This document shows positions 1 to 7,538 of a stretch of 7,538 nucleotides of DNA, one piece after another. The stretch spans positions 1 to 7,538 of the IMG/VR virus record IMGVR_UViG_3300029157_000009. One strand, given 5' to 3'. Source of the DNA: a virus (lineage: Duplodnaviria > Heunggongvirae > Uroviricota > Caudoviricetes). Within the stretch, counting starts at the first letter, position 1, and every line of letters begins with the position of its first letter. The notes under the pieces were generated by a model that was given only the letters and a program-made list of their open reading frames with translations, made no database searches and had not been told where the DNA came from. A program made the translations under genes and the position numbers.

Positions 1-1129
1 TCTATATAGCAATTATTATTCGCATCCTTTTTCTCATAATTCAACAAATGCATTCGGATTTGTTGTATTAGCAATATACATAATAACCCTCTCAAGCAAG
101 AAAATAATTCCTGCCGCTTCCATTTTTATACTATTAGTACTTTCTGGAGCTTCTGATCCTTGGATATTACCATCTTTTACACTACCTATATTGATATCTG
201 AGGTTTACAATTCATTCATCAATAGAAAAAGTTACAAATACTTTATTTTTCTATTGCTTGCATTTTTAACATCTTATTTGAATCTAGTTCAACACCTTTT
301 TGATCTACCGACTGGCGGGTTCAAAATAACAACATTTGAGCAGATGATATCTAATGCACAGTATGCAATAGTATTAACAGCAAAAATGATGCCATTGTGG
401 GTAAACCCATCAGCATCTATGTCATATTTTATTGTTTTCATATGGGTGGCCGTGTTCATAGCAGCTGCTTTAGTTTGTTTTAATAGAGGTAAAGAATTAC
501 GTATCTTTTCTATTTGCTGCGTCCTTTCAGTTCTTGGAATTTACTCTTCATCTATAATTGGAGATCAATTTCCGCATCAACGTTTTTATGTAAATGTTGC
601 TCCCGTTGTTTTCTTGTTAACCTCTGTAGCCATAAGATTTTATAAAGCTTTCTTAATACCAATTTTCATAACTATTTGTGTTTCTGTTTATGGGTATTGT
701 AACTCACCATTAAAATATGAAGAAAATAAAAACCCAGTTTATGAATATATGACTTTCCTTTCCAACAATAATCTAAGTTATGGTTATGGTAGTTTTTGGT
801 ATTCTATGAATATGACAGTGAATTGGTTATCAAAAGACCAAATACATATAACACCTGTTTTCTTTAACCCTGAAACTGGTGTTGTGTATTTTCAGCCTGC
901 AAGAATACAAACACTGTCTTCATGGCATACAAAGGAATTCATAAGCGGTAAACCAAACAGACAGTTTATTGCCATAACTCAGGGACAAACCGGTGGTGAT
1001 ACATGTCCAAACGTTCAAATATGTATTGATGGTGCTCAGAAGCAATTAGGAAAAGCCGATGAAATCCTATCATATAAGAACACAACATTCTTGGTGTACA
1101 ACAAACCAATTGAAACAGATATAAAGTAA
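1..1129 (+). CDS. 5'-truncated multi-pass integral membrane protein with a ~150-aa C-terminal hydrophilic domain; candidate O-antigen-modifying (GtrC-like) lysogenic-conversion protein
   Basis: The listed ORF begins at a TTG at 191, but the same frame (codons from position 2) has no stop back to the window edge and encodes further hydrophobic segments (e.g. FGFVVLAIYIITL, IIPAASIFILLVLSGA), so the gene starts upstream of the window. At least six hydrophobic helices are followed by a hydrophilic tail (CNSPLKYEENKNPVYEY...KPIETDIK). The region is visibly AT-rich compared with the rest of the window. It is convergent on the tailspike gene, as gtrC is in P22. The functional family is inferred from position and topology only. 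Confidence 0.75.
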   Translation, partial: LYSNYYSHPFSHNSTNAFGFVVLAIYIITLSSKKIIPAASIFILLVLSGASDPWILPSFTLPILISEVYNSFINRKSYKYFIFLLLAFLTSYLNLVQHLFDLPTGGFKITTFEQMISNAQYAIVLTAKMMPLWVNPSASMSYFIVFIWVAVFIAAALVCFNRGKELRIFSICCVLSVLGIYSSSIIGDQFPHQRFYVNVAPVVFLLTSVAIRFYKAFLIPIFITICVSVYGYCNSPLKYEENKNPVYEYMTFLSNNNLSYGYGSFWYSMNMTVNWLSKDQIHITPVFFNPETGVVYFQPARIQTLSSWHTKEFISGKPNRQFIAITQGQTGGDTCPNVQICIDGAQKQLGKADEILSYKNTTFLVYNKPIETDIK

Positions 1130-1138
1130 TTTAATGCA

Positions 1139-1166
1139 AGAGAGGGATATTTCCCTCTCTTTTTTA
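1139..1166 (+). terminator. Rho-independent terminator between the convergent membrane-protein and tailspike genes
   Basis: Perfect 9-bp stem AGAGAGGGA (1139-1147) / TCCCTCTCT (1152-1160) with a 4-nt loop TATT, followed directly by a T-run (1161-1165). It lies 10 nt after the plus-strand stop (TAA 1127-1129) and just 3' of the tailspike stop (1167-1169 on minus), so it may also act in the other direction, though the minus-strand T-tract is weaker. Confidence 0.65.
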
Positions 1167-3290
1167 TTAATAATTCCCCTCAGAAAGGAAGCTGTAAACC
1201 CCGGGACCACCTGCAATATTACATGTCCACGCCTTTGGTTGTCCTGAAGCAGGTGCGCTATTGATAACGCGTTCGCCTATATCCCAGAAACCGGATGTAG
1301 GTACTGACGAAAGATAAAATGTTGTTTTTTCAACTTGTAACGCATTTGATGGCATTCCATATACACAAAGAGACGGTGAGTTTATGAGTACATTTCCTGA
1401 ACCATAATTTCTTATGCCAACATTTATAGCTGTAGCCGTTGCGTCTATATACACACCACAACTAACATAGCGCCATTTCCCATTACCAGCTAAAGGTGCT
1501 GTAGAGTCTGTTTGTCCTGCACCATTAACTATAAACATAAGTTTTGACGCTGCTCCCTGGTCATTTACCCACGCACCAAACCATACAAATTTCCCTTTTA
1601 GTTCTGGTGATTTGTTGAGGTCTATCGTTCGTCCCCAAACTCTATCTCCTGTCGTAACTAAGAATGAATAATTACCAGCATAGATGTTTTGAGTTTTTAT
1701 CAATGTTCCTGTGGTTCCAGATGTCGCGGTCCAGAGCAACATATTTCGATCAAGATAGTTAGCAGTTAACTCTCTGTTCGCAATATCTATTAAATGCGCA
1801 GTGTCAGGGTTTTGTGTCGCCGGGTCATAACTACCAACGTATCCTATGGAGTTCACTGTGTTGTTGGCAAGATATAGCCTGTCAGTAACTTTGGACGAAA
1901 GATTATTGTGGTACATTGCTAATAAATTATTCACTTTCGATACGTCTAATAACTGATTATTTTCAATCGTCAGGTTTTTCGCATAGTTCGTGAAAATAAA
2001 TCCGTCTTGGTTAGGTAGCGCGCTGGCGTAGCCAATCGCGGTCTGCTGATTCCCGCGAATAGATACGGTATCATTAATTTTTGAAAGGTCAGGAATTAAT
2101 GTAAAATTGTTCGCGATAAGGTGGATATCCGCACGTACTGTAATAGACTCAGGTACACTATACGGGTAACCAATCTCACCGTTGCGTTCCCAATAGTTAT
2201 CATCAAGGTTAAGGCCTTTAACCCCGTAAGCCAAAAGTCCGTAGAACTTATTTTGCTCTATATTGTTGCCATTAACTCTGACGCTCATACCGCCCTCAGC
2301 GTAAGCTGGCGTAAGTAAAACTCCACCGGCTCCGTTACCATAGATACGGCTGTTGATTATATTAATATTATTGCAGAAACCACCAACATTAATACCGTTA
2401 CCGGCGTTTTGAAACAACCGGCACCCAATGATGTCAATGGAGTAACCGTTAACTAATATTGCGTTGTTATTAGTATTAACCACGTCAATATTTTCTATTT
2501 TAATGTGGTTGGCTTCAGTAAGACTGATGCCGTTAGCTGCGTAGCCATTTCCGTCAAGACCAAAGTCCCTGAACTCGCAGAACGCAATTACCCCATCTTG
2601 TTGCGTGATTATCGGTGCCGCTGTACCCGTAGAGAAAATTCTGGACTGATATGCGCCAGCACCTCGTATCATGGTGACAGTATTCTTAATCGTAATACCA
2701 GGGTCAACAATGAACGCCCCCTCTGGTATAACAATCTCAGTTGGCAACGTAGCATCATCAATAGCCTTCTGAAATGCAGCTTTGTTCTGAGCACCGGTGT
2801 TTCCCTCAGCAAACCCGTAGTCTGTAAGCGTCCTCAGGTCGATAGTTAGCTTTTTTGAGAGAATGGTCGATGTGCTATCGACAAACTGTGGGTTATGCAT
2901 GACTAGAGAGTCGCCAAGTGAGTGATCTTCGCTCAGGAGATTGCCCTTAAACTGATCTGGATCATACTTTAGCACATTCGGAAAATAGAACTGCTGCGCA
3001 CCGTATGCATCATAAACAGCCATAGAATGGCCTTGCACAGTTACGAACTTGGCAATCTGTCCGTTATATACAGGGTAACCAGCAGCGTTAATGATGATTG
3101 GTTGCGAAACAGGAACGTGAGAGCCGTCTTCGTTTTCCACATAAACCTGAATCTGGTTTTCAGGATTTACCGGGTCCGTGTCAATTTTACCGATATAAAT
3201 TTTGCCATTAGTTACGGCTTTAAAAGAACGCGCCATAGTGAAGAGTTGCGAAGGCATGCTTACCACAACATTTGCGGTGATATCTGACAT
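1167..3290 (-). CDS. Tailspike protein: P22 gp9-type N-terminal head-binding domain fused to a divergent right-handed beta-helix receptor-binding domain (probable polysaccharide depolymerase)
   Basis: From the internal Met the protein begins [59 protein letters not shown]...[15 protein letters not shown]...NVLKYDPDQ, which closely matches the P22 tailspike N-terminus as I recall it ([59 protein letters not shown]...). I place the start at the ATG at 3290-3288 rather than the ORF-track start at 3338, because of this homology and a GGAG Shine-Dalgarno 7 nt upstream on the minus strand. The remaining ~590 residues are rich in N/G/I/V repeats typical of a parallel beta-helix (e.g. [71 protein letters not shown]) and do not resemble the P22 endorhamnosidase domain. 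Confidence 0.92.
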
Positions 3291-3411
3291 TTCATTGCTC
3301 CAGACGAATGATATGATGCAACCATGATGTGATTGCATACCGAAATGGTACTATTGAGTATTTATCCAGTAGGTTACGATGCCATTCCACCCAACTGGTG
3401 AGGCATCAAGG
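3291..3411. promoter_or_regulatory. Divergent intergenic control region between the tailspike and the mnt-like gene; candidate promoters and operator
   Basis: A 121-bp spacer separates two divergent start codons. It contains ATGAT direct repeats (3308-3317 and 3324-3328), an inverted repeat ATGCAA (3316-3321) / TTGCAT (3333-3338), and a short inverted repeat CACC-AACT-GGTG (3389-3400) just before the mnt-like Shine-Dalgarno. I could not assign -35/-10 hexamers with confidence. Confidence 0.35.
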
Positions 3412-3672
3412 ATGTACAGCAAATACGACGAGGCGCAGTTTCACTTGAGACTTCCGCATGAACTCCACGCGAAAATTAAGCAGCGTGCGAAGATGAATAA
3501 CAGGTCGCTGAACTCAGAGATAATTGCAGCGATTGAGGAATCATTGGATAAACAAAGCTCTGCATCAGTTTACATTGACGATGCAGAGCGTATGGCAGAA
3601 CAACAATCTGATATGGTTAAGAAAATTGTCTTTGATACGCTCAAGAAGCTATATAAAAAAGACAGCAGATAA
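3412..3672 (+). CDS. mnt: Mnt-like ribbon-helix-helix (Arc/MetJ family) transcriptional repressor
   Basis: The C-terminal half, DAERMAEQQSDMVKKIVFDTLKKLYKK, closely matches P22 Mnt (DAERLADEQSELVKKMVFDTLKDLYKK), and the N-terminal region, FHLRLPHELHAKIKQRAKMNNRSLNSEII, aligns with the Mnt RHH region (FNFRMPMEVREKLKFRAEANGRSMNSELL), both from memory. I start the gene at the ATG at 3412, which gives an Mnt-sized 86-aa product with a GGTGAGG Shine-Dalgarno (3397-3403), rather than at the ORF-track ATG at 3379. Confidence 0.85.
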   Translation: MYSKYDEAQFHLRLPHELHAKIKQRAKMNNRSLNSEIIAAIEESLDKQSSASVYIDDAERMAEQQSDMVKKIVFDTLKKLYKKDSR

Positions 3673-3692
3673 CCATCCGTTACGGAGGATTT

Positions 3693-3770
3693 ATGCACAG
3701 AGATATGCTGAATATTGCGTTCTACATATTTGGTTTTTGCACGTTCCTGGTGTTTGCAAAGCTATTCTGA
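3693..3770 (+). CDS. Hypothetical 25-aa hydrophobic peptide (MHRDMLNIAFYIFGFCTFLVFAKLF), single predicted transmembrane helix
   Basis: An ATG at 3693 is preceded by GGAGGA (3684-3689) and lies 20 nt after the mnt-like stop on the same strand. The product is a short charged head followed by about 20 hydrophobic residues. Its 3' end overlaps the last codons of the convergent 797-aa gene. It is too short to be supported by homology and the Shine-Dalgarno spacing is short. Confidence 0.25.
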   Translation: MHRDMLNIAFYIFGFCTFLVFAKLF

Positions 3771-6155
3771 CAACGCATCAGACTTAGCCCCCTGCGTCAG
3801 GGCGTTAATGGCCTTTTGCGCCTGCTGCATGGCTTTCTCAAACGCTGTTGATCCGCGTGGGGTGTTTGCCATTCGGAGCATTGCATTTCTGAATGGCTCG
3901 CTCTCATAGGCGCGAGTAAGAAGTCCGTAGCTTACCGCTGCGCCAGTTGTCGCCGGGTTCATTGCCGTCCCATACCCGATAATGAACGGGATAGTTTGCT
4001 GCCCCGTTGGTGTTGTTACTGCCGCTTTTGCTGCCTGCTGAGTGGATTGAAGGTAGTTTTTCAATCCTTTCAGATAAGCGGCTTCCTGACCTTTAAATGT
4101 GATGCCAGTCTGGTTTTGCAGGATGTTAAGCTGTCGAAGGAACTGGTCAGGGGATCCGCCAGATTTCTCCATCGCCTTTCCAATGATGCCATTGCGCATT
4201 TGCGCCCTGCCAACACGACCAACTGAGTTATACAGAGTCTTAATTTCCGATTTGTTCTTGCTGAATAGCATGTTGTTGACAACTTCCGGCGTCAGGTCGC
4301 CTTTCATGATAACATTCTTCAGCCTGGTATTCTTTAGTTTCGCCGCTTCGTCAGCGTAGACGGCATTGGCCTGCTGATATTTACGGAGAGTATCGTTGCC
4401 AAGATTCTGACCAATGGCACCATTGATATCGTCAGTCATTGCCTTGTAAACGCGCTGAATGGCAGCATCGGAACGGTTTGGTAACACTGGTCGCTCACCC
4501 TTCACGTCCATTCTGAACTGGCTGCGCAGGTCGCTTAATTGCTTCAAATCCAGATTTACCGGACCATCAGGACCAGCATTGCGAACAAGCTCATCACGAT
4601 AGGACTGAAGTTTTGAAATAGTCTCGTTATCGGCGACCTTACCAAGCTTCTGCAGATTAGATATTTCTGTATCAATCTGCTGAATTGCTCGCGCAGGCTG
4701 AATGTTTACTCCAGCCATAGCATTCTGAACCTGCTCCAGTCGATTACCGGCGGCACGACGAATTCCTGATGTTTTCGCTTTAAGGCTGTCAATAACAACC
4801 GCTGGATCATACTCACCGAATTTATCGGCAAATCTCTGCACCAACTGGCTTCTCGCTTCCTGTTGCGTTGCTCTCATTCCGCTTGTGCCAGCCAGAGGGA
4901 TATTTTCTGCTGTAGTCTGCGCCATTTTTCCGACGCGGGAAGTTGGTTGTAACAGGTCTGTGGTGTGAAGAGGAACTCCTTCACGCTCTGCAAATCTGAT
5001 AGCCTGCTGCGCTTCTGGCGAGATAGCGCCACGAACGCCACGATAAGCAGCACCTAATCCACGTCCGGCAGCGTTAATAGCACCGCCAGCAAGTACACCA
5101 ACGCCTAAATCGGTGGCGAGTGCTTCCGCATCATCTTTCGCACTATTTGCAGCAAGTGATCCAACTGCGTTTTCTGCTAGAAGGCGAGTTGCCCCCTGAG
5201 CAATTCGACCAGCAAGTGTTGGTGCCTGTGTTGCCGCTCTCTCAACGCCAGCAGGAGTGAGGTAAGGCAATGCTTCAGCAAATACCCTTCCCTCTGTCGT
5301 TTGTGGAGTCAGCGCGCCTTGCTGAAGGCCAAAGTCCTGCTCTAATCCCTGCGTTGTTACTCGTGGTGCTGGTTGATATGTACCATCGCCAATGCCGAGT
5401 TTACCGCCAGCCCAAGCCGCCGCGCTTGTTACAGCATCAGTGAGTTCAGCAGGTATGTTCGCTACGTTGATTCCTGCCTGTAGTAAGCCGCGCCCGGTTT
5501 CAGCAAGTCCATTACCAAGGTCAGACATTATTCCGCCTTGCTGCTGAACAGGTTTCGGTGCGACAGAACTTACGGGTTGAGGTGGCTGCTGACTGGCTGC
5601 CTGCTGCTCAATCTGAGCAAATGGATTATTTGGGTCTGACTGCACGCCTGATGCCGATACTTGTTCGGATGACTGTGCTTCCAGTTGTGCAAACGGGTTG
5701 TTAGGGTCTTGCTGAGGATGTACCTTTGCAGAGGTGGCGCGCTGTTCGACTGTTGAGTCTGTCACCGGGTCACCCGCCCATTGAGCAAAGCGATCATCAA
5801 CGTAACCGCGGCCTTCAGGTCCTGGCGTATATTCACCACGCTTTGCCTTCATAACGTTGCCGGGACCGTCGTGATAAGCCTGAAGAGCGTCACGCCAGTT
5901 ACCAAACTGCTGGTACATCTTTGCCAGATAGCGCGCGCCAGCGTCAGCCTGATATTCGGGGTTTTGCATTTGCTCATCGGTATAACCCATATCACGCCAT
6001 GTCCCAGGCATGACCTGAGTCAATCCTACAGCCCCGGCGGAGCTTACTGCGGCAGGGTTGTAAGAAGACTCCTTGGCACCCAGTGCAGTCATCAACCCTT
6101 CTGGCACACCGTAACGTGCGCCAGCCTGCTCTAACAAATCACGGTAATTAGCCAT
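3762..6155 (-). CDS. Virion ejection (DNA-transfer) protein in the P22 gene-16 position, with an N-terminal family-1 lytic transglycosylase (SLT) domain
   Basis: This is a 797-aa ORF. Its N-terminus carries the canonical SLT signature AKESSYNPAAVSSAGAVGLTQVMPGTW, with the catalytic Glu in the ES motif, followed by AYHDGPGN. The remainder is an Ala/Gly/Gln-rich extended region. The start ATG directly abuts the stop of the preceding gene (TAAATG at 6158-6153), suggesting translational coupling. Its position, just downstream of the gene-20-like protein and upstream of the tailspike, matches the ejection-protein block of P22-like phages. Confidence 0.9.
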   Translation of the reverse strand: MANYRDLLEQAGARYGVPEGLMTALGAKESSYNPAAVSSAGAVGLTQVMPGTWRDMGYTDEQMQNPEYQADAGARYLAKMYQQFGNWRDALQAYHDGPGNVMKAKRGEYTPGPEGRGYVDDRFAQWAGDPVTDSTVEQRATSAKVHPQQDPNNPFAQLEAQSSEQVSASGVQSDPNNPFAQIEQQAASQQPPQPVSSVAPKPVQQQGGIMSDLGNGLAETGRGLLQAGINVANIPAELTDAVTSAAAWAGGKLGIGDGTYQPAPRVTTQGLEQDFGLQQGALTPQTTEGRVFAEALPYLTPAGVERAATQAPTLAGRIAQGATRLLAENAVGSLAANSAKDDAEALATDLGVGVLAGGAINAAGRGLGAAYRGVRGAISPEAQQAIRFAEREGVPLHTTDLLQPTSRVGKMAQTTAENIPLAGTSGMRATQQEARSQLVQRFADKFGEYDPAVVIDSLKAKTSGIRRAAGNRLEQVQNAMAGVNIQPARAIQQIDTEISNLQKLGKVADNETISKLQSYRDELVRNAGPDGPVNLDLKQLSDLRSQFRMDVKGERPVLPNRSDAAIQRVYKAMTDDINGAIGQNLGNDTLRKYQQANAVYADEAAKLKNTRLKNVIMKGDLTPEVVNNMLFSKNKSEIKTLYNSVGRVGRAQMRNGIIGKAMEKSGGSPDQFLRQLNILQNQTGITFKGQEAAYLKGLKNYLQSTQQAAKAAVTTPTGQQTIPFIIGYGTAMNPATTGAAVSYGLLTRAYESEPFRNAMLRMANTPRGSTAFEKAMQQAQKAINALTQGAKSDALSE
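5589..5714 (-). repeat. In-frame tandem duplication of about 18 codons inside the SLT-domain ejection protein
   Basis: Protein residues ~148-165 (QQDPNNPFAQLEAQSSEQ) and ~172-189 (QSDPNNPFAQIEQQAASQ) are near-identical, and the matching DNA units are visible on the plus strand around 5620-5710 (caaatggattatttgggtctgactg / caaacgggttgttagggtcttgctg). The repeat lies just C-terminal to the SLT domain. Confidence 0.6.
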
Positions 6156-7442
6156 TTACTGCCCCAAAGATGGAAGATATCCGTAGCGATTAATGAAGTC
6201 GATTGACAGCTCGGGGTGCTGCTTCAGGTAATCTATAGAAGCCTGAGGCGCTTCCACTCGCTTGATACCGTTTTGCTGAACGTACTTACCAACCGCCTCA
6301 TTACGCTTCTGGTTGAGCGTGTTCAGGATGACGCCAGCGTTGCGACGAAAGGACTCCTCGCTCTGCGAGTTCTGCAGCGAACCAACAGCCTGGTCGAGCT
6401 TTTTGCCCTCGGCATCAGAAAGTGCGCCCATGCCTCGCATGGCCTGAACCGCTGTCAGGTATGCTTGTGATTTAAAGGTATCAAGTCGTGCCTGAGTGTC
6501 TGCAGCCTGTGAGCCTGGAACGTTGGGGATTACTCCACGTAAGCCTGTAATGCTCTTAAGTGAAGGAGAGCTAACGATATCGTTCAGAGTGAACATGCTG
6601 GTTGTGAGGGTGTTGATGCCGTCTTTGTAGCCATCATTTAGCGCTTGCTGCTTCTGCTGCAACTGCTGGTTGTTGGCTGCTATGCGGCTCTGTATTTCCT
6701 GGCGCTTCAGGTCGTTAGTTTCTGCTGATAGCATCCGGTCAAGGCGCTTATTTTCGTTGTTAATGCGGTTTGTTTCTGCGTCCAGATTAATGCGCTGCTG
6801 ACCTAAATTCGCCTGGATATCTTGTCCGCGCATTGTGATTGCCTGATTCCGAGCGGCGGTTTGCGAATCCAGATCCTGACCGCGCATGGTAACCTGGCGA
6901 CCCTGCATTTTATCCTGTAGGTCAAAGTATTTTTCGGGCCCGAGACTGTTCATCCCCAGGTGATCGACAAATTCGCCGAACTGCCGCGGATTCTGTTGGT
7001 ACATCTGAGCGACGTCATGAGGATTAACGCCAACACGAGCTAACTCACCGGCGTTGTTTTGCAGCCATGATTGCATTGCTTCTGGAGACGATGACGCAAG
7101 GCGTGCGCCAGCAGCTAAGGTGCCGATAGAATTACGCTGCTCTTCATCAATGAATCCCATGCCTTTACGAACGGATTCAATCTGGTCTGGATATTGAGTA
7201 GCCAACTGACGCAAAGCACCGCGATCACCAGACGCATAAGCATTAGCGTACGCCTGCTGAAATTCTTTCTGCCGCTGAGCCTGCTTTTCCTGCTGAAACA
7301 CCCCCGCAATACCAGAAAGACCTTGCAAAGCTGTCAGCCCAACATTGTTAGCGCCTGAACGCTCAATATCATTGTTCTGCCTGATAAGCTGAAGCGTGTT
7401 GCCGATGTCATTTACGGTGTGCCCGGAGTTCAGGGCGGGCAT
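6156..7442 (-). CDS. Virion ejection (DNA-transfer) protein in the P22 gene-20 position
   Basis: This is a 428-aa ORF, Gln-rich, with a weak internal duplication of the motif TMRGQD (residues ~185-190 and ~203-208; DNA ~6786-6893). Codon usage matches the neighbouring ejection gene. It is tightly packed and co-directional with the SLT-domain protein (stop/start TAAATG). The assignment rests on position and size; I cannot recall the P22 gp20 sequence well enough to claim direct homology. Confidence 0.8.
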
Positions 7443-7538
7443 GGATGCTTAAATGAACCGCGAGTCTGTCTGGAATATTGAACCGGTAACTCACGATGAG
7501 AAACCCAACAATCCCACCGGGTGTGACGGTGGAGAACC
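7443..7538 (-). CDS. Probable 3' end of an upstream co-directional gene (gene-7-like ejection protein?) truncated by the window edge; reading frame unresolved
   Basis: On the minus strand, two of the three frames are open from the window edge through the start of the gene-20-like CDS and would end at 7430 or 7408, overlapping that gene. The third frame ends at a TGA at 7493-7491. P22-like late operons are tightly packed, so a gene ending here is expected, but 96 nt is too little to choose the frame. Confidence 0.25.

Follow-up and report, generated by a model that had tools for sequence, protein, structure and literature searches.

The 7,538-nucleotide stretch of viral DNA considered here (the window) carries a tailspike gene whose first part resembles that of phage P22 and whose remainder does not. 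It raises the questions of what the larger part recognizes, how it acts on its receptor, and how the parts came to be joined. The results indicate, with a probability of roughly 85%, that the gene belongs to a P22-like (Lederbergvirus) prophage of E. coli and encodes a tailspike with a body that binds, and probably cleaves, the O26 O-antigen. The architecture, the breakpoints, the near-identity to known proteins, and the association with O26 genomes were computed in this work; O26-specific host recognition itself comes from published papers. The mosaic reading offered in a preliminary description of this DNA is right, but the gene is nearly identical to an O26 module that has been published and put to experimental use, and as such is already known.

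A P22-type anchor on a beta-helix body

The tailspike gene is an intact minus-strand ORF with its stop end at 1167. The ATG at 3290 was chosen over the ATG at 3338 as the likely start because a Shine-Dalgarno sequence, GGAG (3301-3298), is spaced 7 nt 5' of it and because the N-terminus that begins there has the same opening as P22 gp9 and Sf6 gp14 and is collinear with both. The 723-aa ORF that starts at 3338 was set aside, since this Shine-Dalgarno sequence and all homologues favor the shorter frame. The resulting bounds (3290..1167, 707 aa) are the same as those delimited earlier.

Table 1. Coordinates of the tailspike gene, its domains, and the adjoining 3' features in the window
Feature	Position	Strand	Basis or remark
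Tailspike gene	1167..3290	-	707 aa plus stop; ORF list, GGAG, collinear N-terminus, 97.6% aa identity to WP_001280420.1
Head-binding (virion-anchor) domain, residues 1-113	2950..3290	-	Pfam PF09008; identity to Sf6 and P22; end of DNA identity at 2946-2952
Neck/linker, residues ~114-180	2751..2949	-	Holds two further breakpoints; protein alignment, DNA identity profiles
Right-handed parallel beta-helix, residues ~181-520	1731..2750	-	Receptor-binding, presumed catalytic body
Candidate catalytic carboxylates and Y366	2127..2258	-	Codons of E345 (2256-2258), E368 (2187-2189), D388 (2127-2129)
C-terminal beta-sandwich domain, residues ~521-645	1356..1730	-	AlphaFold2 model strands 411-533, pLDDT 74-91
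Conserved C-terminal tail, residues ~646-707	1167..1355	-	Contains the 3' breakpoint; pLDDT of the monomer model is low here
Perfect hairpin, likely shared terminator	1138..1161	.	Between two convergent genes; 10-bp stem, then T-run
GtrC-type gene, 3' 376 codons	2..1132	+	Convergent with the tailspike gene; cut by the window edge

As expected for a P22-like tailspike, the protein begins with a PF09008 domain. Residues 1-113 match positions 1-113 of the 113 in Pfam Head_binding (E 4.2e-67), and in alignments to solved structures this segment is 91% identical to Sf6 gp14 and 74% identical to P22 gp9, which bears out the earlier statement that the first ~115 residues are near P22 gp9. It would serve to dock the spike, which we infer to be a trimer, on the phage tail.

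The remaining ~590 residues are of another kind. The P22 chains 8tvr_A, 2xc1_A, and 5gai_Y align to query residues 1-115 only, in agreement with the earlier view that the body is unrelated to the P22 endorhamnosidase domain. A PDB sequence search gave no match between the rest of the protein and the P22 gp9 receptor-binding domain; homology to P22 gp9 residues ~125-666 is absent, and a family profile search likewise returned no P22 body. Sf6 shows weak extra sequence similarity up to residue ~256. Neither a single-protein search nor a 20-sequence profile search of the PDB found a solved relative of the body; just anchors and necks were matched, with the neck (residues ~114-180) aligning in the profile search to that of CBA120 TSP3 (5w6f). 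NCBIfam holds no family for the spike, and in PHROGs it is matched end to end by phrog_8846, which is annotated 'unknown function'. When a phage protein database was searched with the body, just phage N7 (59%) and one 56-residue C-terminal match were found.

The fold of the body is nevertheless recognizable. Asn makes up 13.2% of residues 181-520, and Pfam Beta_helix (PF13229) matches the body with an E-value of 1.5e-8. An AlphaFold2 monomer model of residues 111-707, built from a 20-sequence alignment (mean pLDDT 82.5, pTM 0.78), contains a regular beta-helix at residues ~150-510, with pLDDT mostly >90, followed by a beta-sandwich at residues ~520-645; the neck and the last ~60 residues have low pLDDT in this monomer. 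The C-terminal right-handed parallel beta-helix body typical of P22-like tailspikes is thus present, as is the N-rich helix that had been proposed. The preliminary description had named two observations that would speak against it, an end-to-end P22 alignment and a prediction with no beta-helix, and neither was found. The protein combines a head-binding domain of the P22 type with a beta-helix body that is not of that type. Its architecture follows the plan of Sf6 gp14 and P22 gp9 (7sg7, 2vbk, 8tvr, 2xc1), namely anchor, neck, beta-helix, and C-terminal domain, although the receptor-binding domains of these proteins are unrelated in sequence to the present body. CBA120 TSP3 (5w6f) and other Kuttervirus spikes differ in their anchor domains and have bodies of ~13% identity.

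Nested breakpoints within the gene

The exchange of tailspike modules among P22-like phages is textbook knowledge, and the proposal that this gene arose by such a domain swap, with a breakpoint at VLKYDPDQ, is upheld. DNA identity to IME10, Sf6, Sf101, HK620-like phages, and others ends at 2946-2952, which corresponds to residue ~113 and the motif VLKYDPDQF. The junction predicted near this motif is therefore a breakpoint, but it is not the sole one. A single recombination point was rejected, since protein alignment and DNA identity profiles show nested breakpoints, with others at residues ~153, ~180, and ~660. The step to a more AT-rich body that had been described at the junction was not seen either, as the head-binding part has 43.1% GC and the receptor-binding part 42.7%. 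The actual steps in GC content fall on either side of the gene: one at ~3750 (52% to 43%), where the injection genes (52%) meet the mnt/tailspike region, and one at ~1150 (43% to 32%), where the tailspike gene gives way to a gene of 32.8% GC.

The further breakpoints come to light in comparisons with several relatives. The breakpoint at residue ~153 emerges from the Uetakevirus receptor-binding protein of O26 strains (873 aa, WP_064551513.1), which belongs to a different phage genus and is anchored by Tail_spike_N (PF18668), not by a P22 head-binding domain. From residue ~153 to the stop, and on through the terminator, the two are alike (92-93% at the protein level), and the shared DNA block (1119-2832, 97.3% identity) runs from residue ~153 past the stop codon and takes in the hairpin (1138-1161). 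In the Uetakevirus O26 locus gtrB is truncated and gtrC is missing. The breakpoint at residue ~180 emerges from phage N7, whose DNA is 100% identical to the window from ~3220 to ~2800; identity is ~55% beyond this stretch and is back at 95-100% between ~1260 and 461. The N7 tail protein (AYR02211.1, MH717096) is thus alike in anchor, neck, and the 3' end through the gtrC remnant, while its body, of the same fold family but ~55-59% identical, probably has a different specificity. A third relative, the Lederbergvirus spike of the O26 strains RM10386 and 11368 (WP_001280420.1), has the same 707 aa and the same architecture, with 97.9% DNA identity over 1201-3646; its locus is near-identical from 3646 to ~1240 and divergent beyond.

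The far C-terminus has a distribution of its own. Residues ~646-707 carry the motif PTxGxWxxGxRxxNxxPxxGQPKxWxCxxAGxPG...SEGN, and this ~50-aa segment recurs, at 50-60% identity, at the end of many tail proteins with otherwise unrelated bodies. It may be a trimerization element, a 3' recombination anchor, or both. Taken together, the comparisons indicate that the gene is a patchwork assembled by homologous recombination in conserved flanks. Its anchor, up to residue ~113, is held in common with Sf6/IME10-type phages; the O26 body, which runs from residue ~153 as far as the terminator, recurs in an unrelated prophage of O26 strains, a Uetakevirus; and the 3' end and the downstream gtrC are found again in phage N7.

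O26 recognition and candidate chemistry

The preliminary description regarded the body as being of 'unknown specificity'. This is superseded, given that the O26 subtype was already published, that a near-identical copy exists, and that the body is associated with O26 genomes. The protein is 97.6% identical to WP_001280420.1, which is I3U_RS19900 of E. coli O26 RM10386 and is also present in O26:H11 strain 11368; the 17 substitutions that separate them fall mostly in residues 571-707. Receptor-binding proteins of Lederbergvirus and Uetakevirus prophages in O26 strains have been catalogued as a predicted O26 subtype, for which at least 30% identity over at least 60% of the receptor-binding domain is asked (Virol J 2023, PMC10408124). 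The present protein exceeds this identity with both copies (97.6% with the Lederbergvirus copy and 92-93% over the body with the Uetakevirus copy). Fusion of the I3U_RS19900 body to CBA120 TSP3 yielded an O26-specific luciferase infection signal (Viruses 2025, PMC12737597), although the CBA120 chimera formed no plaques on O26 despite this signal (PMC12737597). The Uetakevirus O26 body (93% identical), when placed on an R2 tailocin, showed weak activity on O26 strains and no significant kill (PMC11762384).

The association with O26 hosts was measured across a set of 5426 complete genomes of E. coli. The body was represented by window positions 1320-2740 at a DNA identity of at least 95%, the O26 wzx gene by an exact match to a 33-nt probe, and the union by a concatenated query. 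The probe sequence is presumably that of O26 wzx; of the matches listed, 12 of 12 are annotated 'O26 family O-antigen flippase'. The body is present in 105 of the 5426 genomes, at 138 places and up to three times per genome, and the wzx marker in 108, with 109 genomes having one or the other. Both occur together in 104 genomes, against 2.1 expected (hypergeometric p ~1e-213, in a set where the O26 genomes are mostly clonal); in other words, 104 of the 105 complete genomes that carry the body have the O26 marker. Because most O26 genomes are clonally related, fewer independent events lie behind the association than its counts suggest. However, the body is found on prophages of two different types, and both markers are found in chicken strain FDN-9, which, judged by its genome size and host, probably lies outside the STEC lineage. 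Many O26 strains have the body on prophages of both kinds, Lederbergvirus and Uetakevirus. In strain 07_3986, the body is present without an exact match to the wzx probe.

Another reading is that this variant recognizes something other than plain O26, such as a glucosylated O26 or an O-antigen with a similar backbone, and that its host is not O26. It could draw on the surroundings of the gene. The window copy adjoins gtrABC rather than the acyltransferase of O26:H11 strains, none of the 5426 complete genomes has its exact flanks, phage N7, with its 59%-identical body, has the same flanks, and the differences from the O26 copy are concentrated in residues 571-707. The beta-helix part, however, is 97-100% identical to the O26 copies, and the genomes in which the domain is found at 95% DNA identity or above are, with a single exception, O26 by wzx, FDN-9 included. 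This reading is consequently held to be improbable, and recognition of O26 is preferred.

P22, Sf6, and HK620 have beta-helix tailspikes that act as endoglycosidases, with catalytic carboxylates stacked on the rungs of the helix; Sf6 gp14 and P22 gp9 are endorhamnosidases for Shigella and Salmonella O-antigens, respectively. In the present body, E345, E368, and D388, together with Y366, show a conservation of 95-100% in a set of 37 relatives that reaches down to ~25% identity; the three carboxylates are the only acidic residues conserved at 95% or more in those relatives. In the model, each of the three sits in a strand of its own rung, and the rungs follow directly on one another (strands 233-235, 256-258, and 277-281). 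This conservation is compatible with an endoglycosidase but is not proof of one. The fold class would also match a lyase. The O26 repeat, however, consists of GlcNAc, FucNAc, and Rha (PMC12093740) and contains no uronic acid, so that hydrolysis is far likelier than beta-elimination, and, with O26 as the substrate, lyase chemistry was set aside as unlikely. Enzymatic assays of this spike or of close relatives were not found.

It has also to be considered that the body merely binds the O-antigen, or strips a substituent such as acetyl from it, and leaves the glycan backbone uncut. The chances of this appear slim. Binding alone would not demand that three rung carboxylates be kept down to ~25% identity. 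In addition, the phage spikes known as deacetylases, G7C gp63.1 among them, have an SGNH fold and not a beta-helix, in contrast to the endoglycosidases of P22, Sf6, and HK620; the deacetylase that had been suggested as one option for the body is unlikely on the same ground. The preferred reading is that of an O-antigen glycosidase with E345, E368, and D388 as candidate catalytic residues, as suggested by conservation and by the modeled fold. Beyond the neck, the beta-helix and beta-sandwich would bind the O26 O-antigen, the three carboxylates stacked on consecutive rungs would form the catalytic groove, and hydrolytic cleavage of the O-antigen would most probably bring the virion to the outer membrane.

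The surrounding locus and the state of the prophage

Upstream of the tailspike gene lie genes for an Inj_translocase protein, an SLT/gp16-like protein, and Mnt, and in full contigs the order is gp26, gp14, gp7, gp20, gp16, mnt, tailspike. The tailspike gene has the place expected in a P22-like phage, at the end of the late region and behind the injection genes and the immI (mnt/arc) region, and gtrABC on its downstream side is likewise typical of such phages. Window positions 2950-7416 are 97.6% identical to phage IME10. The gp16-like injection protein (3762-6155, minus strand, 797 aa) has an SLT lytic transglycosylase domain at its N-terminus (Pfam E 2.8e-25), like its counterparts in IME10 and Sf101; the corresponding protein of O26:H11 strain 11368 has just 614 aa. 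The repressor gene (3379-3672, plus strand) is of the Mnt/Arc ribbon-helix-helix type and diverges from the tailspike gene. Its true start is probably an internal Met that gives 86 aa, as called in the matching locus of GCA_047730665.1, and, unlike in phage N7, there is no arc/ant pair near it.

On the other side of the hairpin, which itself lies inside the 97.3% block shared with the Uetakevirus O26 locus, the plus-strand frame from base 2 to 1132 (32.8% GC) represents the final 376 codons of the gene for a GtrC-type membrane protein of 506 aa; it is 99% identical to the 506-aa protein P0234 and matches no Pfam or NCBIfam family. In full contigs that carry the identical tailspike, gtrC follows gtrA (PF04138) and gtrB (PF00535) and abuts ybhB-bioABFCD. 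The gene is presumed to encode an O-antigen glucosyltransferase of lysogenic conversion. O26:H11 strains have an acyltransferase in place of gtrC; their Lederbergvirus locus pairs it with intS at tRNA-Arg, whereas the window type has gtrC/gtrB/gtrA beside ybhB-bioA.

A further and more speculative reading, judged less likely than not, is that body, hairpin, and gtrC travel as one cassette that recognizes an O-antigen and then masks it, with the neck and the C-terminal motif as recombination anchors. The idea is favored by a Citrobacter-type prophage in which the gtrC-plus-body block (window 2-2854) recurs in collinear order, at 78% DNA identity, and in which the spike has a PF18668 anchor, and by the occurrence of the C-terminal motif on unrelated tail proteins. 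Its generality is called into question by phage N7, where this gtrC remnant adjoins a body of 59% identity. A general linkage of gtrC and body was also rejected: spikes beside more distant GtrC homologues (Obesumbacterium, E. fergusonii) show no similarity to the body. The linkage holds for close relatives only.

At its other end, the window leaves the phage. All phage homology ends at 7416, and positions ~7396-7538 belong to an IS3-family element that 2788 of the 5426 E. coli genomes carry. The gp20-like ORF (6156-7442) is consequently a 5'-truncated gene, since its ATG at 7442 lies in IS-derived sequence. Window positions 1-7416 are identical to sequence within L006 1-22124 (GCA_047730665.1), which abuts ybhB-bioABFCD-uvrB and where the prophage is probably a defective remnant.

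These findings raise the possibility that the spike gene, while intact in sequence, is an unused relic in a defective prophage of the present genome. Contigs with the identical protein run from ninE straight to the tail-needle gene without lysis, terminase, portal, or coat genes, and have no integrase adjoining gtrA; in the window itself, the 5' end of the gp20-like gene has given way to the IS3-family element from ~7417 on. On the other hand, the tailspike ORF is intact and 100% conserved in many assemblies; the identical protein occurs in 186 blocks of the collection index, and its cluster has 503 members. The balance between a relic and a gene still in use is accordingly judged about even. 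The question bears on present use only and leaves the identity of the protein unchanged.

The O26-recognizing tailspike described here is one more natural variant of a known module; its exact protein sequence is already in public assemblies, GCA_047730665.1 and GCA_958429685.1 among them, and its family is already in PHROGs (phrog_8846). The O26 subtype has been put to use in the retargeting of a reporter phage (PMC12737597) and, as the Uetakevirus copy, in a tailocin (PMC11762384), and the variant is relevant to the detection and biocontrol of STEC O26. The conserved triad of E345, E368, and D388 provides a directly testable hypothesis for the active site.
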